Below the pieces are notes generated by a model that saw only the letters and a list, made by a program, of their open reading frames with translations, was not told the DNA's origin and made no database searches. The position numbers and the translations under genes were made by a program. From positions 1 through 30,453 of IMG/VR virus record IMGVR_UViG_2563366799_000004: DNA of 30,453 nt. The stretch is one strand, 5' to 3'. The stretch is from a virus. Taxonomy: Duplodnaviria > Heunggongvirae > Uroviricota > Caudoviricetes. Shown here piece after piece: positions 2,716-30,453 of this stretch; position 1 is the first letter of the stretch; every line of letters starts with the position of its first letter.

Positions 2716-3687
2716 ATGATCCGCCCGTTCATCAAATGGGCAGGGGGTAAAACCCGTGTCCTCCCTGACCTGCTGCCGCATCTTCCTAAAGCCGACTGCC
2801 TGATCGAACCGTTCGTAGGCGGCGCATCGGTATTTCTGGCGACTGAATACCGCCGCTATGTGCTGGCTGATATCAACCCGGATCTTATTAACCTGTATCG
2901 GGAAGTCACCCGTTACCCGGACTTAGTGATCGATGCGGCCCGCGAACTGTTCAACAGCAAGAATAGCCCGCAGGGGTACAACGAAGTCCGAGCCGCGTTC
3001 AATAAGCAGGTATGTACGGTAAAAAGCGGTGGGTTGCGTTATGGCGTCGAAATGGCGCGCATCATGCGTGCTGCTCAATTCCTGTATCTGAACCGCCACG
3101 GTTATAACGGCTTATGCCGTTACAGCCGTAAGACCGGCTTTAACGTGCCGTTTGGCAAGTATAAGAGCGTCTACTTTCCTGAAAATGAAATCCGCCTGTT
3201 TGCCGAAAAGGCCAACGATACAAAGGCAATATTTCTTTGCGCGCCGTTCCAGCGTTCTCTACAGGTCGTCACGGGTGGCGATGTTCTCGTTTACTGCGAT
3301 CCGCCTTACCTGCCTGAAAGCAAAACAGCCGATTTTACCCAATACCACACCGAACCATTCACGGAAGACAACCACCGCCAGTTAGTCCAGGCACTGCTGG
3401 AAGTTAACCGTAAGCATGGCGTGAAGGTTGTCATTTCCAACAGCGACACCGAAGCCACCCGCGCGATTTATCAGCCTTTCAAGATGCACGAAATCAGCGT
3501 GCAACGTTCCGTCAGCACTGACAAAGACAACCACCAGAAGGCCAAAGAAGTGATCGGCGTGCTGCCTGTCTGCGACTGCTGCGGGCGTTACGGCGGCGGT
3601 TGCCCTGATTGTGGCGCCGTGATGGGTGATGCGACTTACAACGCGATGGTTGCGGCAGGCACGTTTGACGATCTGGAGGAGTTTTAA
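2716..3687 (+). CDS. dam: DNA adenine methyltransferase (Dam family) with a Cys-rich C-terminal extension
   Basis: N-terminal SAM motif FIKWAGGK, catalytic DPPY motif, plus an extra C-terminal CDCCGRYGGGCPDCG tail. Confidence 0.85.
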   Translation: MIRPFIKWAGGKTRVLPDLLPHLPKADCLIEPFVGGASVFLATEYRRYVLADINPDLINLYREVTRYPDLVIDAARELFNSKNSPQGYNEVRAAFNKQVCTVKSGGLRYGVEMARIMRAAQFLYLNRHGYNGLCRYSRKTGFNVPFGKYKSVYFPENEIRLFAEKANDTKAIFLCAPFQRSLQVVTGGDVLVYCDPPYLPESKTADFTQYHTEPFTEDNHRQLVQALLEVNRKHGVKVVISNSDTEATRAIYQPFKMHEISVQRSVSTDKDNHQKAKEVIGVLPVCDCCGRYGGGCPDCGAVMGDATYNAMVAAGTFDDLEEF

Positions 3688-7367: not shown

Positions 7368-8417
7368 TCAGATTGCTGCCTGCAACAGTGCGTAAGGGTT
7401 GAAGCGCACCACGTCGATCCCCAGCCAGTCGTTTAACTCTTTCAGGCTTTCTTGTATCGGGGCCAGTTCGTTGATGGAAAACACCTTCGCCGCTTTCTCT
7501 ACGTCGCCGAAGCCACCGGAGTTATTCGGCATTACCCCCATCAGAACGGGCGGCACGCGGTGCGCGGCTAACAGGTCGTCGCGGGTGGCGTCTTTGATGC
7601 CGGTAAACTCATCCTTCGCCGCCACCTGGCTGAACGGCATAATTTGCAGGCCGTCTTTTTTCCCGCCCGCCGCGTAGACAAACAGGTTTTTAAAAGCACC
7701 GTTGCCGCGTGCATCTTTCAGCGACTTCTTAAGCTTTTCCACATCGTTATTATTCGCCACCGGGTCAGTGAGGTAGACGATCACACCCGCATGACTGCCG
7801 TTAATGTAGTAGTTGCGGCGGAACACCGTTGCTTCACCGTTCAGCATGGCGCTTTGTAGCGCGGCCAGATATTCCGGCGCACCGTAGATCTCCTGGTGCG
7901 GGCTGGGGTTCTTGATCTGGCAGACGCTGCCCGGTTCGAACGCGTGATCGTCAACGTAGCGCGGAACAAACCAGAATTGCGCCGGGTCTATGCCGCGCCG
8001 CGTATATTTTGCCTGGCTGTGCCGCAGCTCGATCGGCTGGCCGAGTCGGTTGCGGCGGCATTCCATGTAACAGTTACCGAAAATTAAATAATCCTGCACC
8101 CAGGCGGTGAACTCCTGCCGGGTCAACAGCGGGTGCGGTATGTAGCAACTGGCGATAACATTGCGTTTAAATATCAGCGGTGACTGGTGATAGGCGGCAA
8201 CGTCGAACATGCGCGCCAGCCCGTAGGGGCTGATCGGTGGTTCATACCAGCGGCCATTGTTATGGCATTCGAGGCACTCCATAAGAGACGCGCGATCGTT
8301 GACTGCGATCGGGTCGCCAAAGCTGAAAGATTCCACGCTTTCCAGCGGGGTGGCTGCGTTGCTGGCCGTGCTGGCTGGCGCAGCAGTTGGCGCCCTGAAT
8401 TTTTTTTTGCCGCTCAA
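7368..8417 (-). CDS. Q: Portal protein, P2 gpQ-like
   Basis: 349 aa; position and family resemblance to P2 Q; directly abuts P. Confidence 0.85.
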   Translation of the reverse strand: MSGKKKFRAPTAAPASTASNAATPLESVESFSFGDPIAVNDRASLMECLECHNNGRWYEPPISPYGLARMFDVAAYHQSPLIFKRNVIASCYIPHPLLTRQEFTAWVQDYLIFGNCYMECRRNRLGQPIELRHSQAKYTRRGIDPAQFWFVPRYVDDHAFEPGSVCQIKNPSPHQEIYGAPEYLAALQSAMLNGEATVFRRNYYINGSHAGVIVYLTDPVANNNDVEKLKKSLKDARGNGAFKNLFVYAAGGKKDGLQIMPFSQVAAKDEFTGIKDATRDDLLAAHRVPPVLMGVMPNNSGGFGDVEKAAKVFSINELAPIQESLKELNDWLGIDVVRFNPYALLQAAI

Positions 8418-10130
8418 TTAAAACTCCTCCACAAAACTGCCGTTATCGCCGGTCACTTCCGCGCCGATCGGTTCGTTGTAAATGCCCTGCATAGTTGCCC
8501 ATGCCAGATCGCCGTGATTGCTGCCACGGGCCCGATCGGACTGGTAGGTAATAACGCCGCCTGCGGTGACTTTACGCACGGTCATAAACGACTGTGCGAG
8601 ATCCATCATTCCGGCGTCGAACTCAAAGCGCCCGGCACGAATGACCATCAACATTTTGAGCACCATCGACCGCTTAAGAACCGGTGAATAGTTGTATTTA
8701 ACCGCCTGCGGGAAGAACTTGATCACCAGTTGATAAACCGCATCGCCGATCCCTGTGCCGTCGATAGCAATGTGCTGCACGTTGTAGCGGGTGGTGATCT
8801 CTTTAATAAATTTGGCCTGCTCTTCGTACTCCATGCCGCGTAACTGGTGGCGTTCTACCGCGCGGAACTTGCCACCCGGCACGGCTGGCGGGGCCAGCAC
8901 AACCAGCCCGGCGCTGTCGCCTTTGCCGCTGCTGCCGTTGGGGTCATAGCTAACCCAGACAGGGCGATTACCCAGCGGGCGAGGTGCAAACGGGTTCCAG
9001 TCCGGCCACGCGTCCGGCATGTAGCCATCAACGCCGCAGCCCAAAATTGTGTTGTAGTCGAAGGCGCGTTCCCCTGCTTTAACGAAGGTACATCCGTACA
9101 GGTTGGCGTATTCGTCAAGGGAGTTTTCGCTACGGATTTCATCAATATCAACCAGATCGAAACCGAGCTTCATGGCGTCTTCCAGCGTGACTATCTGGCG
9201 CCAGATGTTATCCCCGCATAGCTTGCCGTTTTTCAGTGCCTTATAACTGGTGTCGATATCCACCCGATCGGATCGGCGGCGGCTTTCATTGAACTGATCG
9301 CCAGTCCAGAAGGGATAGGCTTCATGTTCTTCACTGGAAGGCGTCGAAAAGTAGGTGCGGCGCAGTCCTTTTTGTGTCGCCATGCCTGCGGCCACCGAGC
9401 GCAGTTTGATGAAATTACTGATCCAGAAGGCTTCATCAAGGTACAGATCGCCGGTGTAGCTCTGGGCCGTCGCGGCGGAGGTGCCGAGAAAATACAGGAT
9501 CGCACCGTTGCTTAACTCAATGGCATCACCGCCCTTAAGTTCTACTCCTATTTCCCTTGCCAGCTTCTGAATGAACCGCTTGAACTGGAACGCTTGGGCG
9601 CGGCTGGCTGACAGGAATATCTGATTATTTCCGGTTTCCAGCGCACGCAACAGCGCTTCGCGGGCAAAGTACCAGGTGGCACCAATCTGGCGCGATTTGA
9701 GGATAAAGCGGTTACGCCGGTTCCACTGTTTGAACCAGCGTTTTTGATGCTCGTATAGCGAATCAAAGATCAGGGCGCGAAGCTGAGTTATCTGTTCTTC
9801 GGTGAAATGGTTTTTCGGGGTCTTCGCCTTCTTCTCTTTCTCCTGGTCGCGTCGCTCATGCCGTTCAAAGCGGTCAAGCTGGCGCGCCAGCAGGTCAATT
9901 TCTTTAAAGTCCTTCGGGGTTTTGTCGTCCTTTTCCACTAGGCGCAGGTAACGAACGTGCGTGCGATCCTGCACCCGCTGCATGGGGGTAGCTTTATCCC
10001 ATTCATAGCGGCGGCGCCAACTGTAGATCGTGTTAATGCTCACCCCGATTTCCTTAGAAATCTGAGTGATGCTAAACGCCTGCCAGTAGAGGCTTTTGGC
10101 TTTTGTGCTGAGGTCTTCGGCTGTATTCAT
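8418..10130 (-). CDS. P: Terminase ATPase (large) subunit, P2 gpP-like
   Basis: 570 aa; region ILKSRQIGATWYFAREALL (Walker A-like) and strong similarity to P2 P throughout. Confidence 0.9.
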   Translation of the reverse strand: MNTAEDLSTKAKSLYWQAFSITQISKEIGVSINTIYSWRRRYEWDKATPMQRVQDRTHVRYLRLVEKDDKTPKDFKEIDLLARQLDRFERHERRDQEKEKKAKTPKNHFTEEQITQLRALIFDSLYEHQKRWFKQWNRRNRFILKSRQIGATWYFAREALLRALETGNNQIFLSASRAQAFQFKRFIQKLAREIGVELKGGDAIELSNGAILYFLGTSAATAQSYTGDLYLDEAFWISNFIKLRSVAAGMATQKGLRRTYFSTPSSEEHEAYPFWTGDQFNESRRRSDRVDIDTSYKALKNGKLCGDNIWRQIVTLEDAMKLGFDLVDIDEIRSENSLDEYANLYGCTFVKAGERAFDYNTILGCGVDGYMPDAWPDWNPFAPRPLGNRPVWVSYDPNGSSGKGDSAGLVVLAPPAVPGGKFRAVERHQLRGMEYEEQAKFIKEITTRYNVQHIAIDGTGIGDAVYQLVIKFFPQAVKYNYSPVLKRSMVLKMLMVIRAGRFEFDAGMMDLAQSFMTVRKVTAGGVITYQSDRARGSNHGDLAWATMQGIYNEPIGAEVTGDNGSFVEEF

Positions 10131-10143
10131 GGCAACAGGCTAT

Positions 10144-10231
10144 CGCGCTCGCGCGCGCAACAATATCGCCGCTGGTTGTCGCCTGAGTCCGACAAAGTGA
10201 AGGCTTTGCGCCTTCCGGCCGCAAAGGGAAT
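10144..10231. promoter_or_regulatory. Late promoter region between P and O: TTGT-N12-ACAA dyad (10176..10195), (GC)n tract (10150..10158), second dyad CTTTGCG-N9-CGCAAAG (10204..10226)
   Basis: The TGT-N12-ACA dyad is the known Ogr/Delta-dependent late promoter element of P2-like phages; it sits between divergent P and O. Confidence 0.55.
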
Positions 10232-10283
10232 GATTGGGGCACTGGTTAATATCAATCGCTTACCAACCCGGAGCTTTGTCACC

Positions 10284-11129
10284 ATGCCAATGACAAATTT
10301 TTTCCGCGCCGCAGTAGAGGGCGCAACCTGTGACGGTCGAGTACTGGAACGTCAGCACATCACCGAAATGGCCGAACAGTACGATCCCCAGGTATATGGC
10401 GCCCGCGTCAATCTGGAGCACATTTTAGGCTGGTCGCCGACAAGCGATTTCCGCGCGTATGGTGACGTGGTTGAAGCCAAAGCAGAAGAGATTGCCGAGG
10501 GCCCGCTAAAGGGCAAACTGGCGCTTCTGGTGAAGGTGGACGCCACGGACGAACTGGTAGAACTGAAAGGCAAACGCCAGAAAATCTACCATAGCATTGA
10601 GGTGCATCCGTCCTTTGCCGACACCGGAAAAGCCTACCTTATGGGGCTGGCCTGTACCGATAACCCGGCGAGCCTGGGCACCGAAATGATGAAGTTTTGC
10701 ACCCAGAACGCCAGCGCCAACCCACTGGCTGCGCGTCACTACGCACCTGAATGCTTCTTCACTGAAACCCTGGAATCATCCCTCGAATTTGCGCAGGAAG
10801 AGCCGCCAGCGTCCGACACCGGGAAGAATTTCTTTTCCCGTATCAAGGAAATGCTGACCGGAACCCGCCAGCACTTCGATCGTGAAAATGGCGATATCCG
10901 CCAGGCGGTTGAACTGGTAGCGGAAAGTCAGGGTGAATTGCTGGACAAGATGGAAAAACTGAGCGCAGGGCAGCTTAAGAACAAGCAGACCGCCGAAGCG
11001 GTGGATAAGTTGCGCTCTGAGTTCGACGAGATGAAAGCGCAGCTTTCTACCCAGGACGCCAGTAAATACCGCCGCCCGGAAGCGACCGGCGCAACTGAAA
11101 AATCTAACGCCCAGCTTGCTGACTGCTGA
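10284..11129 (+). CDS. O: Capsid scaffolding protein, P2 gpO-like
   Basis: Start set at ATG 10284 (GGAG 10 nt upstream); MPMTNFFRAAVEGATCDGRV matches the P2 O N-terminus; the track start at 9957 would overlap P. Confidence 0.85.
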   Translation: MPMTNFFRAAVEGATCDGRVLERQHITEMAEQYDPQVYGARVNLEHILGWSPTSDFRAYGDVVEAKAEEIAEGPLKGKLALLVKVDATDELVELKGKRQKIYHSIEVHPSFADTGKAYLMGLACTDNPASLGTEMMKFCTQNASANPLAARHYAPECFFTETLESSLEFAQEEPPASDTGKNFFSRIKEMLTGTRQHFDRENGDIRQAVELVAESQGELLDKMEKLSAGQLKNKQTAEAVDKLRSEFDEMKAQLSTQDASKYRRPEATGATEKSNAQLADC

Positions 11130-16513: not shown

Positions 16514-16560
16514 TTGTCACCAACCCGCCACAAGGGCGCCGCGTTGTTTGCGCGCGCGCG
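16514..16560 (+). promoter_or_regulatory. Late promoter element upstream of V: TTGT-N12-ACAA followed by GCGTTGTTTG(CG)5
   Basis: Perfect TTGT-N12-ACAA dyad (16514..16533) and alternating CG tract (16551..16560), ~110 bp upstream of V. Confidence 0.6.
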
Positions 16561-20456: not shown

Positions 20457-21049
20457 TGAAACCTGTTTTCGATGAAAATGGACTGGCAACAGAACCGGGT
20501 GAAATCCGGTGCTATTACTACGACGCGGTGACGTTTGAATACATGGGATGGTCTGACGAATATATTAATACTGGCGTAAGTATGCCCGCCTGTTCCACTG
20601 GTATTGATCCTGGCGAAAACATTCCGGGAAGAGTGGCAGTATTTACAGGTAAGGGATGGAGCCATGAAGAAGACCATCGCAATGAGACTGTTTACTCAAT
20701 CGAAAATGGCGCAGCTGTTACAGTGGATTATATCGGTGCCATCAAAGACGGTTATGTCACGATTTCACCGTTAACGCCATACGATAAATGGGATGGTGAG
20801 AAATGGGTGACAGACACTGAGGCACAACACAGTGCCGCAGTAGACGCGGCAGAAGCACAGCGCCAGTCACTGATTGATGCAGCAATGGCTTCCATTAGTC
20901 TGATTCAGCTGAAATTACAGGCCGGGCGGAAACTGACGCAGGCAGAAACAACCCGACTTAACATTGTGCTGGATTACATTGACGCGGTGACGGCAACAGA
21001 TACCAGCACCGCGCCTGATGTCATCTGGCCTGAACTGCCGGAGGCGTAG
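20456..21049 (+). CDS. G: Tail fibre assembly chaperone G (Tfa family)
   Basis: 197 aa; ATG overlaps H stop (TAATG); C-terminus ...DTSTAPDVIWPELPEA is the Tfa signature. Confidence 0.85.
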   Translation: MKPVFDENGLATEPGEIRCYYYDAVTFEYMGWSDEYINTGVSMPACSTGIDPGENIPGRVAVFTGKGWSHEEDHRNETVYSIENGAAVTVDYIGAIKDGYVTISPLTPYDKWDGEKWVTDTEAQHSAAVDAAEAQRQSLIDAAMASISLIQLKLQAGRKLTQAETTRLNIVLDYIDAVTATDTSTAPDVIWPELPEA

Positions 21050-21260
21050 GCCATTCAATATCGGGTGCTGTTGACGTATCAACACGCATCAGCAGCACAC
21101 GGTATTTCTTCCATTGGGTGAGAGTTGAAGTTTCTTCATCAGTTGCGATACCAGCATCAACAGCATCCTGTCGCCAGGATATTTCAGCATCTGCTTTTGC
21201 ACGAAGGGTGGCTTTCATGTTTGCAGCGTCGGATTTTTGTTGTTCTGGCGTTCGCGGTGG
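21021..21260 (-). pseudogene. Truncated tail fibre assembly (Tfa) C-terminal fragment, convergent with G
   Basis: Minus-strand frame ends ...YRVLLMRVDTSTAPDIEWPTPP, the Tfa C-terminal signature; N-terminal half absent; the first ~30 codons of track ORF 21021..21347 read through the repeat element and are not Tfa-like. Confidence 0.65.
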
Positions 21261-21313
21261 TTCATCAACCCCAGCGACCAGAGATAAGAATTCCGGCACG
21301 CATGGCCGGTTAT

Positions 21314-21385
21314 AACCGTGCTGGCCGTGTGTATCGAGTACGATCACTTTTAACGGTGCTGTAGCACGGTCAGTTATGGTGGTGT
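21314..21385 (+). repeat. ~70-bp repeat element, copy B (partner at 14791..14862)
   Basis: AACCGTGCTGGCCGTG(T/C)GTATCGAG... shared with copy A; nested stem ACCGTGCT/AGCACGGT. Confidence 0.7.
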
Positions 21386-21400
21386 ATTACGGAAGACGAA

Positions 21401-21423
21401 GCGGGCAATGGCCCGCTTTTCTT
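21401..21423 (+). terminator. Rho-independent terminator between G and U
   Basis: GCGGGC-caat-GGCCCGC hairpin followed by TTTTCTT on the plus strand; abuts the U stop codon. Confidence 0.6.
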
Positions 21424-21871
21424 ATATCGAAAGGTTGGTTTTCACCAGAGAGAAGAGATCGTCGGTGGTGGTTTCAGCCAGCTTTTCCCGTATGTCCTCG
21501 CTTACCCGTTTCAGGTTGAGCGTGAAATCAATTTTCTTTGCCTTCCCGTCCTTAAAAAACTCCGTCCGGTTTTGCGTGATCTGCTCAATTACATACATGC
21601 CGTAGATCCTGCCCGTGCCTTCTATCAGGGGCCACGGGCGCCCGGAAAAAGCCATAGTTTCCAGCATGACAAGCGACACATCACCGCCGCTTATTTCGGG
21701 GTACAGCGTGCCGCTGAGTACGAACGGTTCTTCATCTGCGCCGATGAACTGATAGCGCGGGGATTTCCCCACGCGATCGTTTTTGACGTGCCGCCAGGAG
21801 TTGGTTTTATTCGCACTCTGGTAAGGTGTGGTTTGCAGTGAAAAGGGGAACATCCCCAGAATCATCATCAT
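21422..21871 (-). CDS. U: Tail protein U
   Basis: 149 aa; immediately downstream of T on the minus strand, as U follows T in P2. Confidence 0.8.
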   Translation of the reverse strand: MMMILGMFPFSLQTTPYQSANKTNSWRHVKNDRVGKSPRYQFIGADEEPFVLSGTLYPEISGGDVSLVMLETMAFSGRPWPLIEGTGRIYGMYVIEQITQNRTEFFKDGKAKKIDFTLNLKRVSEDIREKLAETTTDDLFSLVKTNLSI

Positions 21872-21880
21872 GATATTGCC

Positions 21881-24826
21881 TTAGACGTGATCGGTCAGTT
21901 GGGAGCGCTTGCGCCGGTCGGCCTGTTGCTTCGCTAACGCAAGTTCTTCGCGCACGCGCCTGATAATGGTTTCTTCATCCAGTTTCTGGCCGCTAAAGTC
22001 GAAGTTAAGGTTATATACATCGCCACCCGGAGCAGGCATCAGCGCAGCGACGGAAGCCGCAGACGGAGACGCCGAAACAGGCATCCGTGCGGCGGGCTTC
22101 TCAACCTGCCAAGGCGTAACGGAAGCGATCAGCGATCCGGCCTGCTGCGTCACCCAATCGGTAAGGGATGGTAGCTGGCGCTGCGCCTGCTTAAGCGGTT
22201 CCGAATATCCGCCACGGATCGGGATATAGGGCTGCTTATTCTTGAAGACAATTTCGCCGGGGCCGTCTTTCTTCTCCGTGGTATTGGTGGCGATCTTGTC
22301 CAGGCTGTTGCTCATCTTCGGCACGATGTTGGCCGGGCCTTTGAGCGAGTTAATTAAGCTTTCCTGCTTTTTCTGCTGGTCAATGGCCTGCTGTTGCTTC
22401 TGGTTGGTTTTCTTCTGCTGATCGTCTTTCGGCGACCAGTTCCAACCCTTTTTAACCATTTTCTTTTGCTGCGGATCCCACTCCCAGACAACAGGGTCTT
22501 TGTGCATACTTTCCGCAGCTTGCTGCGCTGCTTTTGTTGCGTCGGGGATGGCGCCGAGTTTCTCAAGTATCCATCCAATCCCGTTAGCGACGGCTTGAAT
22601 AGGTAGCGTCAGCGCGCTAATTGCGGCCCCTACAACCTTGCCGAACGTTTCCCCGGCACTGGTGCAGGATGCCAGCGCTTCACTGGAAAACTGGATCGGT
22701 TCCAGCAGTTTGGTAAACCATTCCCAGACCCCACTGATCGCGTTGCCGATACTGTCAAAAATCGGGGCCAGTGGTGCAAATACGGCGTTAAATGCCTGCG
22801 TGATTGGTTGAAGGCCAGTCATCAGGCCGGTAAAGAAGCCGCTGAAAAACGCCTGTATGGGTTGCCAGAATTTAATGACGGCCACTGCTGCCGCAGCAAA
22901 GAGCGCAATCAGCCCCCAGACGGGCGCAGAAATACCAGCCAGTAGAGTAATAAGCGGGCCGAATACCATGCGACCGGCGCTTAATAATGCCTGCATAGGC
23001 GAGCCAGCAAGCCACTGGAACGCACCACCAAGGCGCATTACTCCGCCAGTCAGCCGCGCTATTCCTCCTTCCCCGGCCAGCGTGGTGAAGCTGAGGCGAA
23101 CAAGTGCCATCGGGCCCAGCACTGCGCCGATGGACAGCATCAGGCCACCCACGACAACCAGCAACGCGCCTATGGCTGCGGTGACTTTCATGATTGAACC
23201 AACCAGCGCCGGGTTTGCCTCAACCCAACGCCGGACGCTGCCAACCACCTTACTGACGGTAAGCATGATATCCATCAGCGGTTCGCGGAGCGTTTCCCCT
23301 GCTGAACTGAATGCGTTAACCGCGCCGGTTTTGGTCAGTTGCCACTGAGCAGAAAGGGAGTCTTTATTGATATCGGATTCCCGATTCATGGAACCTTTAG
23401 CGGCAGCACCCTGCGTCAGTTCGATCTGGCGCCGAAGTTCGGGCAGGTTGTTCGCAAGTTTCTGTGCATCATCCCCGAACTCTTTACCGAAAATCTGGGT
23501 AAGGTTGGCTACCTGCTTATCTGGTGCAAGTTTTTTGGACGCTTCCAGCACTGAAATGATCGTGCCCATCGCGTCCACTGACATGCTTTTCTGGACTTTC
23601 TCAGCATTGACGCCGATCTCATCCAGAGCACCCAAAAATTTATCGCTTTGTACTGTGGCGATCGACAGTTCACGCACCATTGCATTGGTGGCGCTGGCTG
23701 CAACTTCGGCAGGTGATCCAAGCGTCAGAAAGGTGGAGCCCAGCGCGGCGGCTTGCTTGTAATCCAGTTGGCTGGCAAGCCCGCCAACGCGCTGGAGCAC
23801 GTCGATAATATCGGAGCCTTTCGACTTCGCGTTATCGTCCAGGTAGTTTATGGCGTCGCCCAACTGTTCAATATTCTGGGTAGGGATTTTATACAGCCCG
23901 GCAATCTTACCGAGACTTTCAGAAAGCTGATCGGCGGGCAGTTCAAAGGCTACCGAAGCCTTTGCCGCCATGCTGGCAAAAGCCAGCAGATCGGCTTTTT
24001 GCTTTTGCCACGGATCATTGCTGTTTGCGACGCCCATACGCGCGCCACCTTCGACCAGTGCGGCATAGTCAACAGCACCGTTTGCCATTGGCAGCTTTTC
24101 GCTGGCATCCATGATCGCCCGCTGCATTTCTTCATATTGCGGGGTGCGGTTGCCGCTGTCGTCACGCAAGCCGTTTACCTGTTTGGCTACGCCCTTCATT
24201 GCGTCTTCAAGGCTGCTGTAGGATTTAACCGCAGCGGCGACAGGTGCTAGGGTTGCCGCCCCTACTGCGGCGGTTTTCATCCCCCCGCTCATCATCTTTT
24301 CGCCGGTTTCTTTGGCGCGGCTGTAACGGGCCTGCGCCTGGTTAACAGCGTCAAGCCGTCGCTGCTGTTCGGCAAGCTGGCGGTTGTATTGCGCGGTGCG
24401 CTGGTTGATCTGTTCCGTCGCCCGGCTGGCGCTGCTGATCGCAATGCCTTCGCTGTAGAAGCTGGCCCGCAACTGGTTAAGCTGTGTCTGCTCGCCTTTC
24501 TGCTGCTGGGTTAACTGGCGAATGGCTGCACGTTGCTGATTGAGGGCGGCAACCTGTTCGGCGCTGCGCTGGCGTAACGGGCCATAGGCCGCCGCCATTT
24601 GCCGGGCCTGTTCTTTCGCCTGGGCCAGTTGTTCGGTGGTTTTTTTATTGGCTGCGGTGAGGCGGTCAAAGCTGGTTGCCTGACGCTCAAGCCCTTTAAT
24701 GCTGGTTTTAGTCTGGTTGATTTGAGACGCCAACGCGGCGGCACTCTGGCGCGCCGCGTTGACAGGGCGGGACATATTATTCAGGGCGCTGAATGCCACC
24801 CTGATATTTAAATTGCGGTCTGCCAT
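21881..24826 (-). CDS. T: Tail tape measure protein T
   Basis: 981 aa; Ala/Gln-rich coiled-coil N-terminal part, Gly/Ala-rich hydrophobic central segments; follows E/E'. Confidence 0.9.
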   Translation of the reverse strand: MADRNLNIRVAFSALNNMSRPVNAARQSAAALASQINQTKTSIKGLERQATSFDRLTAANKKTTEQLAQAKEQARQMAAAYGPLRQRSAEQVAALNQQRAAIRQLTQQQKGEQTQLNQLRASFYSEGIAISSASRATEQINQRTAQYNRQLAEQQRRLDAVNQAQARYSRAKETGEKMMSGGMKTAAVGAATLAPVAAAVKSYSSLEDAMKGVAKQVNGLRDDSGNRTPQYEEMQRAIMDASEKLPMANGAVDYAALVEGGARMGVANSNDPWQKQKADLLAFASMAAKASVAFELPADQLSESLGKIAGLYKIPTQNIEQLGDAINYLDDNAKSKGSDIIDVLQRVGGLASQLDYKQAAALGSTFLTLGSPAEVAASATNAMVRELSIATVQSDKFLGALDEIGVNAEKVQKSMSVDAMGTIISVLEASKKLAPDKQVANLTQIFGKEFGDDAQKLANNLPELRRQIELTQGAAAKGSMNRESDINKDSLSAQWQLTKTGAVNAFSSAGETLREPLMDIMLTVSKVVGSVRRWVEANPALVGSIMKVTAAIGALLVVVGGLMLSIGAVLGPMALVRLSFTTLAGEGGIARLTGGVMRLGGAFQWLAGSPMQALLSAGRMVFGPLITLLAGISAPVWGLIALFAAAAVAVIKFWQPIQAFFSGFFTGLMTGLQPITQAFNAVFAPLAPIFDSIGNAISGVWEWFTKLLEPIQFSSEALASCTSAGETFGKVVGAAISALTLPIQAVANGIGWILEKLGAIPDATKAAQQAAESMHKDPVVWEWDPQQKKMVKKGWNWSPKDDQQKKTNQKQQQAIDQQKKQESLINSLKGPANIVPKMSNSLDKIATNTTEKKDGPGEIVFKNKQPYIPIRGGYSEPLKQAQRQLPSLTDWVTQQAGSLIASVTPWQVEKPAARMPVSASPSAASVAALMPAPGGDVYNLNFDFSGQKLDEETIIRRVREELALAKQQADRRKRSQLTDHV

Positions 24827-25287
24827 TTAGTGATCTCCACCACTGCGCGCAGCCGCCTGATCACGCCATAACAGTATTTCCTGTACCGTCATGGCGTCCA
24901 TCTCTACCGGCCGCCAGTGGAATATGACGGCGATATCTGCCATCAGGTCTTCTATGCGTTCGCAGGGGCATCGGATGATTCGTTGCCCGTATCCGTCGCG
25001 GTCAGATCCGAAGAGGGTTGCAAAAAATCAACCACCGCGTTGGCTAGCTGGCAAAAATCCCAGGTATCCATACGGGCAATCTCATCGGCGGTTAGTGCCG
25101 GAGCGGTAACGCGGGGCAGCAGAATAACCAGCGCGTCATAGTTGGAAGTCAGCACGTCATAGGCTTTTAAGCCGCGCAGTGATCCAGCCTGTTTAAGCAC
25201 GGAAGTGATCGCCACTTCGGTGATTTTGGTCTTACCGCGCGTAATAGGGGCGGTAAGAATAACGGTGTTTTCTTTGGTCTTGCTCAT
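24827..25287 (-). CDS. E: Tail assembly chaperone E and its -1 frameshift product E+E' (slippery site T TTT TTG at plus coords 25021..25027)
   Basis: Zero-frame E = 24952..25287 (111 aa). Minus strand reads GAT TTT TTG at 25029..25021; hand translation of the -1 frame after it gives an open extension (...IAVIFHWRPVEMDAMTVQEILLWRDQAAARSGGDH) ending at a TAA that abuts the T start (TAAATG). Confidence 0.75.
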
Positions 25288-25301
25288 GGTGCCGGGTTTC
25301 C

Positions 25302-25817
25302 TTATAGGCCGATGTTAGCGCGGTGTTTTTCCAGCACATCCACACCGGCAACTTTGTAGATCATGTTGAGCACATCAACTTCGATAATCTCTTCGCCGTT
25401 GATGGTCAGCTTGTAATAGGTGTTTTTCAGGGTGTACTTATGCGAAGTGTCATCCCCGACTTTTGCCGAACCGGGATCCAGTTCAGTGAAGCGGCCACGC
25501 GTCTGGATTTCGCACGGTACAGCGTCGCCGGTTGCGTCGTCCTGATAGGAGCCAGCAAAACGTGTTTGCATCCCGTCCGCAGTGGTAACGCCCCATTTTT
25601 TCAGCAATCCGGCATCCAGACCGCCAAGCGTGATATCCATATCCAGGGCGCCAGCGTCGAAGCCAAGATCCACCGCAACCGAACCCGGCATACCACCCGC
25701 CTGGTAGTCTTCGGTTTTTTTTGTGAGTTTGGCGGGGGTGATTTCCGGCACCATGCCGAAGTAGTTATCCCCGTCAAAGAACATATTGAAATATTTGAGT
25801 TTCTTAGGCAGTGCCAT
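25302..25817 (-). CDS. FII: Tail tube protein FII
   Basis: 171 aa; follows the sheath gene; P2 FII-like. Confidence 0.85.
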   Translation of the reverse strand: MALPKKLKYFNMFFDGDNYFGMVPEITPAKLTKKTEDYQAGGMPGSVAVDLGFDAGALDMDITLGGLDAGLLKKWGVTTADGMQTRFAGSYQDDATGDAVPCEIQTRGRFTELDPGSAKVGDDTSHKYTLKNTYYKLTINGEEIIEVDVLNMIYKVAGVDVLEKHRANIGL

Positions 25818-25829
25818 AAGCGCCCCCGG

Positions 25830-27023
25830 TTAGTTATTCACTGCGCTGGAAAACGTAGCGAAATATTCGTCGGTGAACTCCTGTACCAGGCTGAGATTTT
25901 CCAGCGGTGGAACAGGGGTGTAGTTGTACTTAATGGTCAGTTGACCATTGCGCAGGGTTTCCGAGGTATTCGGTTCCGGGTCATACCAGCAGTGGGCGCC
26001 CAGCAGCTTGCCAGCCGTCACATATGAGGTCAGCTTCTTATTGATGCCGTCCACAATGTCCTTAACCAGCGACGGGGTAAGCGGTTTATCAACATAGGCG
26101 AAATGGGCTTCGGCGACGGTATCCGCAACGATCTGCGCGGTTCGGGTATAGCTTTCGAAGATATACGTTTCCGCGTCGCAGGTACGCGATCCCCAGATGC
26201 GGTAGCCGTCCTGCTTGATCAGCGTGGTAACGCCTGCTGCGTTCAGTTCGTCGGCGTCGGTATCGGTGCCCTGCAACGTGAAATAGATATCCCGATCCAT
26301 CCCCAGCACGTTATTAACGGGCACGTTGGAAATGGTTTTATGCCAGCCCTGCGTTGCGTCGATTTTGGCTCGCATCCCAACAGCATGGGCACCCACGGGC
26401 ACGGTGGCATTAGCCCCGGCGTTGGTGTCGTAGCAGATGAAATTAGGCCAGATAACCATCATTTCACGCTGGGAGAATTGCTCGCGGTATTCCTTCACTT
26501 CGGCGATTGTGTTGCAACCGTTCGCTGCCACGTAAGCAAACGCGCGCAGCTTTTCGGCAATGACGCCGAGTTGTGCGGCTACCGCTTCCGTATCAAGCCC
26601 TGGAACAGCCAGTACACGCGGGCGCACACCTACGCGCATTTCGGCAGACAGCAGCGCGTACATGCCGGTAAAGCGCCCGTTTGCATCGGTGCCGCCAATA
26701 ACCAGTTGATCCTGGGTCTGTGCGGTGCCGCCTTCTGGCGGTTCGATATTTGCAGCATCAGCAACGCGGATCACAATGGTTTGCGGGCTGGTCTGGTCTG
26801 AAATCGCTTTCAGGGTGGTAAACAGGGTGCCGGTTTTACCTGCCTTGCCCAGCATGTTAGCCACGCGGGTAATCAGTACAGGGGTATCCAGCGGGAACGC
26901 TGTTTCGTCCGCATCATCAGCGGTGCAGACAACGCCGATCACCGCCGAATCAATGTCGGTGATCATCGTGCTAAGGTCGGTGGTTTCCGTGACGGTTACA
27001 CCGTGATGGTAGTTAGTGGCCAT
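25830..27023 (-). CDS. FI: Contractile tail sheath protein FI
   Basis: 397 aa; motifs LRAFAYVAANGC and YTPVPPLENL match P2 FI; SD GAGG before the ATG at 27023. Confidence 0.9.
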   Translation of the reverse strand: MATNYHHGVTVTETTDLSTMITDIDSAVIGVVCTADDADETAFPLDTPVLITRVANMLGKAGKTGTLFTTLKAISDQTSPQTIVIRVADAANIEPPEGGTAQTQDQLVIGGTDANGRFTGMYALLSAEMRVGVRPRVLAVPGLDTEAVAAQLGVIAEKLRAFAYVAANGCNTIAEVKEYREQFSQREMMVIWPNFICYDTNAGANATVPVGAHAVGMRAKIDATQGWHKTISNVPVNNVLGMDRDIYFTLQGTDTDADELNAAGVTTLIKQDGYRIWGSRTCDAETYIFESYTRTAQIVADTVAEAHFAYVDKPLTPSLVKDIVDGINKKLTSYVTAGKLLGAHCWYDPEPNTSETLRNGQLTIKYNYTPVPPLENLSLVQEFTDEYFATFSSAVNN

Positions 27024-27094
27024 GTATTTGCCTCGCCAGTTTAATGACTGCGAATATCATTGCGGCAATGGCGGGCCGATGCGATGGATAAGGG

Positions 27095-27143
27095 TTGTCA
27101 GCAACCTGCAACAATGACGGGGCGTTGTTCATGCGCGCGCGCG
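27095..27143. promoter_or_regulatory. Late promoter element centred between divergent FI and D: TTGT-N12-ACAA followed by GCGTTGTTCAT(GC)5
   Basis: Perfect dyad 27095..27114 centred at 27104.5; intergenic midpoint 27102; alternating GC tract 27133..27143 on the D-proximal side. Confidence 0.6.
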
Positions 27144-27180
27144 TGGCGACGATGTACCCCATCATGATGAAGGGGTTGAT

Positions 27181-28299
27181 ATGGACACGACAGAAAACCG
27201 ATATTCGCCGCGCCCGGCGTTCAGTATTGAGATTGAAGGTAAGCAGCTTACGGCGCTGGATAACCGGCTGATCTCCCTTTCCCTGACAGATAACCGGGGC
27301 TTTGAAGCGGACACGCTGGATCTGACTCTGGATGATGCAGACGGGCAGGTAGCCTTACCATCACGCGGCGCAAAGATATCGGTGGCGCTGGGCTGGGATA
27401 ATGATCCATTGGTTTTTAAGGGAGTGTATACGGTTGACGAGATCGGACACTCTGGCCCGCCTGACCAGCTAACGATCAGTGCCAGAAGCGCAGATTTCCG
27501 CGATACCTTTAACGTGAAGAGGGAATATAGCTGGCACGATATTACCGTGGGGGATGTGGTTGCCAGCATTGCCAGCCGTTACGATCTGCGTGCGGGCGTC
27601 AGCGAAGAACTGGCGAAGATTGAGATAGATCACGCCGATCAGACGAGTGAATCAGATATCAGCTTCTTAACGCGCATGGCCGAAATGCTGGGCGCGGTGG
27701 CAACCATTAAAAACGGTATGCTTCTGTTTATCACGCCGGGCAAGGGAGTAACGCAGAGCGGCAAGCCGCTGCCGGTGATCGAGATAGTCCGGTCAAGCGG
27801 TGATAAACATCGGTTTAACGTAGCTGACCGCGACGCGTACACGGGCGTAACTGCATACTGGCTTGATCTCAACTTTGGCAAGAAACCATCCACTACCGTG
27901 AAGAAAACCACCCGCAGGCGACGAACCAGCCAGGCCAAAAAGAAAGAACCCGCATCAAGCAAAAAAGAAGGGGATTATCTGGCCGGGGCCGAAGGCAACG
28001 TTTTTGTTATCCGTAAAACCTTCAAGACGGAAAAGGCGGCGAAGCGGGCCGCTGCGGCTAAGTGGCGGGAGTTGCAGCGTGGAGCGGCGACGTTCAGCAT
28101 CACCCTGGCGCGTGGCCGCGCGGATTTGTACCCGGAACAGCCCGCCAGCGTCTACGGCTTTAAGTCCACGATCGACAGTGGGAACTGGACGATAACGCGG
28201 TGCGTTCACGATATTGGCGGGGGAGGGTTTACCACATCGCTGGAACTGGAAGTAAAAATCGACGACTGGACAGCGGAGAGTGACGATTCAACGTCTTAA
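27181..28299 (+). CDS. D: Tail protein D (late control gene D family)
   Basis: 372 aa; P2 gpD-like N- and C-terminal regions with a basic low-complexity insert (KKTTRRRRTSQAKKKEP); SD AAGGGG. Confidence 0.85.
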   Translation: MDTTENRYSPRPAFSIEIEGKQLTALDNRLISLSLTDNRGFEADTLDLTLDDADGQVALPSRGAKISVALGWDNDPLVFKGVYTVDEIGHSGPPDQLTISARSADFRDTFNVKREYSWHDITVGDVVASIASRYDLRAGVSEELAKIEIDHADQTSESDISFLTRMAEMLGAVATIKNGMLLFITPGKGVTQSGKPLPVIEIVRSSGDKHRFNVADRDAYTGVTAYWLDLNFGKKPSTTVKKTTRRRRTSQAKKKEPASSKKEGDYLAGAEGNVFVIRKTFKTEKAAKRAAAAKWRELQRGAATFSITLARGRADLYPEQPASVYGFKSTIDSGNWTITRCVHDIGGGGFTTSLELEVKIDDWTAESDDSTS

Positions 28300-28347
28300 G
28301 CGTTATACTTGCGTTGATATTAACCAGTCCTGAAAGGAGGCCCGCGT

Positions 28348-28590
28348 ATGGCAATGCGCTGTCCTCGCTGCCGTGCAATAGCAAAAACCAGAACCAGCGT
28401 TGAGCTGAGTTTGCTTGTACGGCGCAGCTATCACCAGTGTCAAAATATGTTGTGCGGGTACTGTTTCACCAGCATGACGGAAATAGACGGTTCACTAAAT
28501 CAGACCCAGCCAGCGCCCGGCGCGATGGTGCCACAAGAAGCTTTTCCACGAAGTCACCACGGCGAAGATCAGTTATCGCTGGCATTATAA
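28348..28590 (+). CDS. ogr: Late gene transcriptional activator, Ogr/Delta zinc-finger family
   Basis: 80 aa; CPRC...HQCQNMLCGYC zinc-finger pattern as in P2 Ogr; located after D. Confidence 0.8.
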   Translation: MAMRCPRCRAIAKTRTSVELSLLVRRSYHQCQNMLCGYCFTSMTEIDGSLNQTQPAPGAMVPQEAFPRSHHGEDQLSLAL

Positions 28591-28592
28591 AA

Positions 28593-28625
28593 GCGGCCCC
28601 TAAATGGGGCCGTTATTTATTTCAT
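28593..28625. terminator. Bidirectional rho-independent terminator shared by ogr (+) and the convergent gene 28617..29264 (-)
   Basis: GCGGCCCC-taaat-GGGGCCGT hairpin; T-rich on the plus side (TATTTATTT) and on the minus side (TTTTATAAT). Confidence 0.6.
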
Positions 28626-29264
28626 GTTTATGGCTACAAACCTTGATCGTGTAAGGTTTTCACTTAAATATTGATCGCCACTATCCCCGGCCTTTTTGCC
28701 CCAGATATCACACGAAGATTCACCGCCCTGAAAAACGTAGCCTTTGGTTAAAATGTCGTTAGTCACATAAATATGATCGAATAAACCAGCCTTCCAAGCC
28801 CTGTTAGATTCCCCGTGATTGAAATAGCTGATGCATACGGACTGAACGGCACTTTTCGCCTGTAGTTCTTCTATGCTGTCAAAATTGAATGCAACTACTA
28901 AGGCTTTGTTGTAAATGACTGGTTTAACTGTGAGATTCAGATCTCCGAGCGCCTTGGATAAGGCAAGGGGAAGTTGATTAGTCGCTTCTGAAAAGTCGAT
29001 AGTGGTTGTTAATTGTTCTTTGGGTTTAGCCGCGGGTTGTGTTTGTTCTGTGTTTGTCACTGCTGGCTGGGGTTTATTTTCAGCAACAGCTTTCGGCGCG
29101 ACTGGTGCAACCATTGAACCTATGATTGCTGCCAAGAGGCACACCCCGAAGTAGATAGCAGATGAGCGCTTTCGATTTGGCATAAAAACCCATTTGGGAT
29201 TGATTAGCCCAACCCAAAAAGCGATCCCAGCAACAGCGGCGATAACGGTGATGATTGTTTCCAT
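28617..29264 (-). CDS. Hypothetical membrane-anchored protein (two N-terminal TM helices, Pro/Thr/Gln-rich linker, ~130-aa C-terminal domain); AT-rich cargo gene
   Basis: 215-aa ORF; visibly lower GC than both the prophage and fieF; not recognisable as CpxP or any phage structural protein. Confidence 0.6.
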   Translation of the reverse strand: METIITVIAAVAGIAFWVGLINPKWVFMPNRKRSSAIYFGVCLLAAIIGSMVAPVAPKAVAENKPQPAVTNTEQTQPAAKPKEQLTTTIDFSEATNQLPLALSKALGDLNLTVKPVIYNKALVVAFNFDSIEELQAKSAVQSVCISYFNHGESNRAWKAGLFDHIYVTNDILTKGYVFQGGESSCDIWGKKAGDSGDQYLSENLTRSRFVAINMK

Positions 29265-29442
29265 TGAGTACCCTCCGTATTAAGGCGGGTATTATTGTCG
29301 ATGGTGCTCAAAAACGGAACAGCCAAGCGCGGTGCGCCTGGCTGCTTCTTTGTCGAAGTGTAGTCAAAATGTAGACGAAGTTTAGAATAAATCCTTTTAT
29401 TCCATTATGTTACTGGCTGGATTTCTTCACCATCCCTGTCTT

Positions 29443-29469
29443 CCCCCACATGATGTGGGGGTTTTTTTT
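29443..29469 (+). terminator. Orphan rho-independent terminator with no upstream same-strand gene
   Basis: CCCCCACA-tga-TGTGGGGG hairpin followed by TTTTTTTT; the nearest upstream plus-strand gene ends at 28590. Confidence 0.6.
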
Positions 29470-29550
29470 ATCCTCAATTTGCCTGCTGCTTAATGCATTG
29501 CAGATGATTTGCTTCCGTTATACTAGCGTCAGTTGATAGCGGGAGTATTT

Positions 29551-30453
29551 ATGAATCAATCTTATGGACGGCTGGTCAGTCGGGCGGCGATGGCTGCGAC
29601 GGCGATGGCTTCGTTGCTATTGCTGATTAAAATTTTTGCATGGTGGTATACCGGGTCGGTGAGTATTCTCGCCGCGCTGGTGGATTCGCTGGTGGATATC
29701 GGCGCGTCGTTGACGAATTTACTGGTGGTGCGATATTCCCTGCAACCTGCCGACGATAATCACTCGTTTGGTCACGGTAAAGCTGAGTCCCTCGCGGCGC
29801 TGGCGCAAAGTATGTTTATCTCCGGTTCGGCACTATTCCTGTTTTTGACGGGTATTCAACATCTGGTATCTCCAACACCGATGACAGATCCAGGCGTCGG
29901 GGTTATCGTGACAATTGTGGCGCTAATTTGTACGATTATCCTTGTCTCGTTTCAGCGGTGGGTGGTGCGCCGGACGCAAAGCCAGGCGGTGCGGGCTGAT
30001 ATGCTACATTACCAGTCTGATGTTATGATGAACGGCGCAATTCTGCTGGCGCTGGGGTTGTCCTGGTACGGCTGGCATCGCGCCGATGCTCTGTTTGCAT
30101 TGGGAATCGGCATCTATATTTTATATAGCGCGTTACGCATGGGATATGAGGCGGTACAGTCATTACTGGATCGCGCATTGCCTGATGAGGAACGGCAAGA
30201 AATTATTGATATCGTGACTTCCTGGCCGGGTGTTAGCGGCGCTCACGATCTTCGCACGCGGCAGTCAGGGCCGACCCGCTTTATTCAGATTCATTTGGAA
30301 ATGGAAGACTCTCTGCCTTTGGTTCAGGCACATATGGTGGCGGATCAGGTAGAGCAGGCTATTTTACGGCGTTTTCCGGGATCGGATGTAATTATCCATC
30401 AGGACCCCTGTTCCGTCGTACCCAGGGAGGGTAAACGGTCTATGCTTTCATAA
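29551..30453 (+). CDS. fieF: Cation-diffusion-facilitator family Fe(II)/Zn(II) efflux transporter FieF (YiiP); host gene
   Basis: Starts [13 protein letters not shown]..., TM-rich N-terminal domain with HSFGHGKAE and cytoplasmic C-terminal domain; ATG 29551 with GGGAG SD (track start 29533 is TTG). Confidence 0.9.

Follow-up and report, generated by a model that had tools for sequence, protein, structure and literature searches.

A single symmetric site in the gap between two divergent late genes of a P2-like prophage probably serves promoters on both of its sides. The window, which is the whole stretch of 30,453 nucleotides that was analysed, carries the tail sheath gene FI and the baseplate hub gene D back to back, with one perfect inverted repeat between them. 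The reading that we favor, and hold to be likely on the strength of sequence comparison, is that this one dyad is an Ogr-family activator site located about 55.5 bp upstream of each of two back-to-back late promoters, of which one would transcribe FI-FII-E-T-U leftward and the other D, probably together with ogr, rightward, and that the D promoter became fixed after an inversion of the tail genes.

Judged from sequence identity, the window belongs with the P2-like prophages of SEN4/SEN5 type (Peduoviridae, Senquatrovirus), as it is 97% identical to SEN4/SEN5 over an 801-bp query (26700-27500) and its terminase is 98% identical at the protein level. SEN4 and SEN5 share the gene order of the window, with the sheath gene divergent from D and the same inverted FI-U block; the publication on SEN4/SEN5 makes no mention of promoters, inversion or orientation. 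Relative to P2, the FI-FII-E-T-U block is inverted, and D and ogr keep the orientation of the other late genes. Late morphogenetic genes are found on both sides of the gap, those for sheath, tube, chaperone, tape measure and gpU reading one way and that for gpD the other way. The original prediction had named the two flanking genes FI and D, and Pfam matches bear this out, with the genes of the sheath operon on the minus strand and D and an Ogr_Delta gene on the plus strand:

21422-27023, minus strand: inverted tail operon FI-FII-E-T-U (Pfam matches)
25830-27023, minus strand: FI, tail sheath, 397 aa (Pfam Phage_sheath_1)
25302-25817, minus strand: FII, tube (Pfam Phage_tube)
24952-25287, minus strand: E, chaperone (Pfam Phage_TAC_7)
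21881-24826, minus strand: T, tape measure (Pfam PhageMin_Tail)
21422-21871, minus strand: U (Pfam Phage_P2_GpU)
21398-21419, no strand: hairpin and T-run where genes G and U converge; likely terminator of the inverted operon at its far end
27181-28299, plus strand: D, baseplate hub, 372 aa (Pfam Phage_GPD)
28348-28590, plus strand: ogr-like activator gene, 80 aa, zinc finger CX2CX22CX4C (Pfam Ogr_Delta, E 1.5e-13)
28592-28614, plus strand: terminator-like hairpin that would close the D-ogr unit (terminator scan)

The ogr-like gene begins 48 bp past the end of D, and because its product is only 30% identical to P2 Ogr, we infer its site preference. Several neighboring features can be recorded here. 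About 350 bp (21050-21400) separate the end of G from the hairpin beside the U stop codon, and an open reading frame of 108 aa (21021-21347, minus strand) lies in this G/U interval, where P2 carries the cargo gene fun(Z). At the other end, the ogr terminator is followed by an open reading frame of 215 aa (28617-29264, minus strand), which has no Pfam or NCBIfam match and is probably cargo of the prophage end; beyond it a host-like cation-efflux gene with Cation_efflux and ZT_dimer domains runs from 29533 on. The SEN5 RefSeq record (NC_028701.2) annotates a hypothetical CDS of 50 aa, SEN5_27 (8313-8465), over the FI/D promoter region; the 50-aa frame that crosses the gap in the window (27013-27165, minus strand) has no family match and overlies the promoter elements, and is taken as spurious. 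The same record places the note 'late control protein ogr' on an opposite-strand CDS of 39 aa (9766-9885), and at the matching place the window has the clean 80-aa Ogr_Delta frame on the plus strand (28348-28590).

The elements in the FI/D gap, and the two other dyads of the same form in the window, are as follows:

27095-27114, no strand: activator dyad, perfect TTGT-N12-ACAA, sequence TTGTCAGCAACCTGCAACAA, centre 27104.5
27079-27084, minus strand: hexamer at the -35 position of the FI side, TCGCAT, 2/6 match to TTGACA
27056-27061, minus strand: AATGAT, -10-like hexamer on the FI side; its start is 43.5 bp from the dyad centre
27049, minus strand: predicted start of the FI-FII-E-T-U transcript, 55.5 bp from the dyad centre, placed from the hexamer position
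27125-27130, plus strand: -35-like hexamer TTGTTC of the D-side promoter, 10 nt past the dyad, 3/6 match to TTGACA
27133-27143, plus strand: (GC)5 tract GCGCGCGCGCG in the -35/-10 spacer of the D-side promoter
27148-27153, plus strand: GACGAT, -10-like hexamer on the D side; its start is 43.5 bp from the dyad centre
27160, plus strand: predicted start of the D-ogr transcript, from the geometry
10176-10195, no strand: P/O dyad, single and perfect, centre 10185.5
16514-16533, plus strand: dyad of the one-directional V promoter, with TTGTTT, a (GC)5 tract and GATACT downstream

The gap is 157 bp long, from the FI start at 27023 (minus strand) to the D start at 27181 (plus strand); from the centre of the dyad it is 81.5 bp to the FI ATG and 76.5 bp to that of D. 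Coordinates and gene starts thus agree with the earlier claim of a perfect dyad centred at 27104.5, about 81 and 76 bp from the two ATGs and close to the intergenic midpoint, which lies at 27102. No second dyad with at most one mismatch was found in the 157-bp gap, and an Rfam scan of 26000-30453 (E ≤1) gave no match in it. Across the window the bare TGT-N12-ACA motif is not enriched (5 found, 5.98 expected). The extended TTGT-N12-ACAA form occurs three times against an expectation of 0.44, a count reached in none of 100 shuffles, and all three copies precede late operons, at P/O (10176), V (16514) and FI/D (27095), which are the kinds of position at which late promoters are expected in a P2-like phage. 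From this we infer that the dyad at 27095-27114 is the single binding site for the Ogr-family activator of the prophage, common to both promoters.

When the five late promoters of the window are aligned without gaps, with the dyad centre as the reference, a hexamer of the form nAnnnT starts 43.5 bp from that centre in all five; the -10-like sequences are GACGAT for D, AATGAT for FI, GATACT for V, AATGAT for O and TAGCCT for P. It is the centring of the dyad between two -10-like hexamers, at 43.5 bp each, that matters more than its centring between the ATGs. Between the start of the FI hexamer (27061) and that of the D hexamer (27148) there are 87 bp, and the positions of the two lead to predicted starts at about 27049 (minus strand) and 27160 (plus strand), which are 111 bp apart with the dyad centre at -55.5 for both. 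Each predicted leader carries a Shine-Dalgarno-like sequence, GAGG at 27031-27034 in the 26-nt leader of FI and AAGGGG at 27170-27175 in the 21-nt leader of D. GACGAT matches TATAAT at A2, A5 and T6 only and is thus a poor -10, which counts against the shared-site reading; the 2/6 match of TCGCAT is what an activator-dependent promoter would be expected to show.

The P/O region has the same mirror arrangement, with TAGCCT (10142 down to 10137) on the P side and AATGAT (10229-10234) on the O side, 87 bp apart. On the P side the start is predicted at about 10130, on the very A of the P ATG (10130; P/O gap 10128-10285); either the P mRNA is leaderless or the true P start lies further downstream. 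Leaderless late mRNAs have precedent, since the P2 record sets the V start site on the V ATG (NC_001895).

One symmetric Ogr site for two divergent late promoters is an established design. The P2 record lists a single 'activator binding site; pO, pP promoters' at 3057-3087, with mapped starts for pP and pO at 3016 (minus strand) and 3127 (plus strand), 111 bp apart (NC_001895), and in Smp131 one dyad has been assigned to both PP' and PO' (PMC3931495). In the P2 sequence, the pP/pO dyad is TGT-N12-cCA with its centre at 3071.5, at -55.5 relative to either start, and the hexamers at -12 to -7, TAGCCT for pP and GAAACT for pO, start at 3028 and 3115, 87 bp apart. The FI/D region of the window resembles this arrangement in having one dyad between divergent late operons and hexamers 87 bp apart, and the P/O region of the window resembles it further in its 87-bp spacing and in the TAGCCT hexamer on the P side. 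There are also differences: the FI/D pair is a different locus, joining the FI operon and D-ogr, and exists only in the clade with the inverted FI-U block; its dyad is perfect (ACA), whereas P2 has cCA; and one of its flanks has an alternating CG tract, which P2 lacks. The original prediction did not mention the established pP/pO design, which lowers its novelty. A search of the literature on TGT-N12-ACA gave, besides the Smp131 paper, just unrelated papers on PpsR/CrtJ; a paper on Xenorhabdus prophage expression holds nothing relevant to these promoters, and a paper on Serratia PP4 names relatives and no more.

Outside the phages, a single CRP site can activate divergent promoters in E. coli, where the activator binds as a symmetric dimer and contacts RNA polymerase on either side. 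CRP belongs to an unrelated activator family, and the case is a mechanistic analogy only.

On the FI side, the promoter is, as judged from its layout, the orthologue of P2 PF. The mapped start of PF, which transcribes the F operon (FI FII E E' T U D), lies 24-26 nt before the FI ATG (NC_001895), as compared with the predicted 26 nt in the window; the dyad centre lies 81-82 bp from the FI ATG in P2 and 81 bp in the window, and the -10 form nAnnAT is common to both. Among 17 clusters of canonical P2-type PF promoters, GAAAAT or GACAAT stands on the FI side at column 45, and nearly all have 80-82 bp between dyad and ATG; the FI side of the window is identified with PF because its 81 bp match this distance. 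No other dyad or intergenic space was found upstream of FI. PF of P2 is one-directional, with D and ogr at the end of the same operon, whereas in the window these two genes stand apart from that operon and are transcribed the other way. D would need a promoter of its own, since no upstream gene is transcribed in the same direction.

Evidence for such a promoter comes from relatives of D, which were collected from 80 loci in IMG/VR and 80 loci in GTDB species genomes. These gave 99 distinct FI/D gaps, in which about 30 species of Enterobacterales were represented besides the IMG/VR records, and the gaps were reduced to 19 clusters below 75% identity. A dyad with at most one mismatch is present at the same place in 96 of the 99 gaps, and nearly all relatives have one dyad per gap. 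Counted from the dyad centre, nAnnAT starts at column 44 on the FI side of 19/19 clusters; the D side has it there in 15/19, with three more at column 45, one bp further out. Most other offsets between 25 and 55 score 0-2 clusters. The sequence between dyad and hexamer varies freely among clusters, and its length is constant. That the D-side pattern is off the exact offset in 4/19 clusters is a point against the shared-site reading. For comparison, the unused side of one-directional dyads was searched. The unused upstream side of the V dyads has nAnnAT in 0/5 clusters, a small control, as the perfect V dyad is present in only 23 of 81 loci; this control was weak and was replaced by the 17 clusters of canonical P2-type PF, in which nAnnAT is found at column 44 or 45 on the unused far side in 0/17.

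Two of the three relatives without such a dyad come from Providencia huashanensis and P. vermicola (L095 and L097) and have TCT-N12-AGA at the dyad position, inside GGTTCTC-N10-GAGAACC, with the flanking hexamers still at column 44. Such a symmetric TCT/AGA change, affecting both half-sites, would be expected if a symmetric protein reads the site. Other half-site variants are TCT-N12-ACA (L111-L113 and L115) and TGT-N12-AGA (L079). Such half-site variants may reflect co-evolution with the DNA specificity of the Ogr homologue.

The first alternative to be weighed is that the dyad activates the FI operon only, as an ordinary PF, and that D and ogr are transcribed from an adjoining weak, Ogr-independent sigma-70 promoter. 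The FI side is clearly orthologous to P2 PF, the D-side TTGTTC has the TTG of a sigma-70 -35 element and might work unaided, and P2 ogr is known to have its own early promoter (NC_001895). However, the D-side hexamer holds its 43.5-bp phase, with the exceptions given above that are shifted by 1 bp, despite diverged intervening sequence, and a D promoter independent of the activator would have no reason to keep a conserved phase to the dyad. The 0/17 result on the unused side of one-directional PF dyads argues in the same direction, as does the D-side layout, which copies that of the V late promoter: a dyad, 10 nt, TTGTTy (TTGTTT in V being placed as TTGTTC is at D), a CG tract and the -10 hexamer. 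A generic sigma-70 scan of 20900-29600 also gave no signal above chance (7 found, 6.5 expected), a level at which it is uninformative on these promoters, and its terminator hits alone were used. Overall we regard this alternative as unlikely. The mirror hexamers, their conservation over 19 clusters, their absence from the unused side of one-directional dyads and the P2 pP/pO design together favor the earlier suggestion that one symmetric site could serve both divergent units, which would explain how D stayed under late control after leaving the F operon.

The resemblance to V was considered as a sign that the D-side promoter arose by duplication of that of V. Outside the dyad the two share 26/46 identities, as compared with 11-21 for other promoter pairs, which is suggestive, but common functional motifs confound the likeness, and the idea was set aside.

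The gene order itself divides the relatives. In the searches of IMG/VR and GTDB, FI lies divergently upstream in every D homologue of at least about 60% identity, and nearly all D homologues of 58% identity or less have the canonical order, U then D; because the order splits by D identity in this way, the inversion is an old and stable trait of one clade. Hosts of the inverted type include Salmonella, Citrobacter, Hafnia, Enterobacter, Pectobacterium, Photorhabdus and Yersinia, and further Xenorhabdus, Providencia, Morganella, Serratia, Kosakonia, Klebsiella and Edwardsiella. In the history that we propose, an ancestral inversion of a segment with PF and FI-U would have set the PF activator site beside D, and a core promoter would then have become fixed at the mirror position on the D side. 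The Ogr-family zinc-finger activator would bind the single dyad at 27095-27114, the PF orthologue would drive FI-FII-E-T-U leftward, and the clade-specific promoter would drive D rightward, probably reading through into ogr, so that D, and with it late ogr expression, would have stayed Ogr-dependent through the mirror promoter.

Read-through is probable from the arrangement of the D-ogr unit. The terminator scan of 20900-29600 predicted no terminator between D and ogr. In P2, one annotated terminator past ogr ends the ogr transcript as well as the F operon (NC_001895), so late PF transcripts by implication extend into ogr. Once inverted, the FI-U operon is transcribed away from ogr, and the D-side promoter would restore late D expression and the late positive feedback on ogr. 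The hairpin at 28592-28614 is terminator-like in both directions. A sigma-70-like match, GTGACG-18 nt-TATACT, lies at the end of D (28280-28309, plus strand), just upstream of ogr; it is a consensus match only, placed like P2's own ogr promoter in the D-ogr gap. In a Yersinia-type subclade (L060, L064, L066-L078 and L092), the D ATG lies 55-56 bp from the dyad centre, which is the predicted +1, so the D mRNA would be leaderless there; leaders in the other subclades, such as the one of about 21 nt in the window, are long enough for a Shine-Dalgarno sequence.

The two sides of the dyad differ in their alternating CG tract. It had been claimed that the (GC)5 tract lies on the D side only, in a placement that matches V, and the tract is indeed found past both the D and the V dyads. 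At D it is part of a 16-nt alternating pyrimidine/purine run (27130-27145); the same tract follows the V dyad at 16550-16560, within an alternating run at 16549-16560, and the spacer of the P promoter has an alternating CG tract at 10148-10157. Such a tract thus takes up the -35/-10 spacer in three promoters, D, V and P, and is absent from those of FI and O, and three of the four (CG)4 loci in the window fall in these three spacers. Among the relatives, 15/19 clusters have a (CG)3 or longer run on the D side, as against 3/19 on the FI side; three of the four clusters that are exceptions on the D side have near-variants such as ACGCGCACGCG or ACGCACGCACATGCG. A few lineages have the tract on the FI side as well as or instead of the D side. 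P2 PV and PF have no comparable alternating CG run, and the spacer of P2 pP is GC-rich.

Candidate roles for the tract are Z-DNA formation or supercoiling sensitivity, and damping of basal promoter activity. One might go further and suppose that the tract is a supercoiling-responsive element, possibly Z-DNA, and not a mere GC-rich spacer, which senses the negative supercoiling generated by the divergent partner and thereby couples or biases the two promoters. The tract does sit in one promoter of each divergent pair (D at FI/D and P at P/O), and also in V. We hold this idea on its role to be speculative and rather improbable.

Another alternative is that both promoters use the site but never simultaneously, so that RNA polymerase is partitioned between the tail genes and D-ogr, with the CG tract biasing the choice. 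Two polymerases would abut at one small site, with predicted starts just 111 bp apart, and the two sides are asymmetric in their CG tract, as the cluster counts above indicate. Against this, P2 pP/pO has the same spacing, and both of its operons are expressed late; moreover, sequence alone cannot tell simultaneous from alternating use. We consider strict alternation quite unlikely. What the conservation of both flanks proves is constraint and not simultaneous activation; with one activator bound, the two promoters might fire in alternation or with unequal output.

It is less likely still that the dyad activates D-ogr only and that FI is driven from elsewhere. The D side does have the better -35-like element and the CG tract that it has in common with the V promoter; but the FI-side nAnnAT stands at the exact offset in every cluster, the dyad lies as far from the FI ATG as it does at P2 PF, a promoter whose start has been mapped, and upstream of FI there is neither another dyad nor intergenic space for one. 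Finally, that the palindrome is a chance feature or the site of an unrelated protein is extremely improbable, for although the minimal motif is not enriched in the window, the extended dyad exceeds its expectation severalfold and only before late operons, its position is conserved across about 30 species, and the gap has no Rfam family match.

Taken as a shared Ogr-family site with a late promoter on either side, the FI/D region is a new instance of a principle that P2 pP/pO had already set, and the conceptual advance is therefore small. For annotators of SEN4-like prophages, which occur in Salmonella, Citrobacter, Enterobacter, Serratia, Yersinia, Photorhabdus, Xenorhabdus and other genera, it provides a promoter model with predicted starts at 27049 on the minus strand and 27160 on the plus strand. 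The 157-bp fragment is also a compact natural system in which to ask how one small symmetric activator serves two polymerases. In the evolution of this clade, the old PF activator site would have been reused in the opposite direction and not duplicated, and this reuse would have left the baseplate hub gene D Ogr-controlled and probably maintained the late positive feedback on ogr as well, making the locus a case of a coordinated late-gene programme that was kept through a large inversion.
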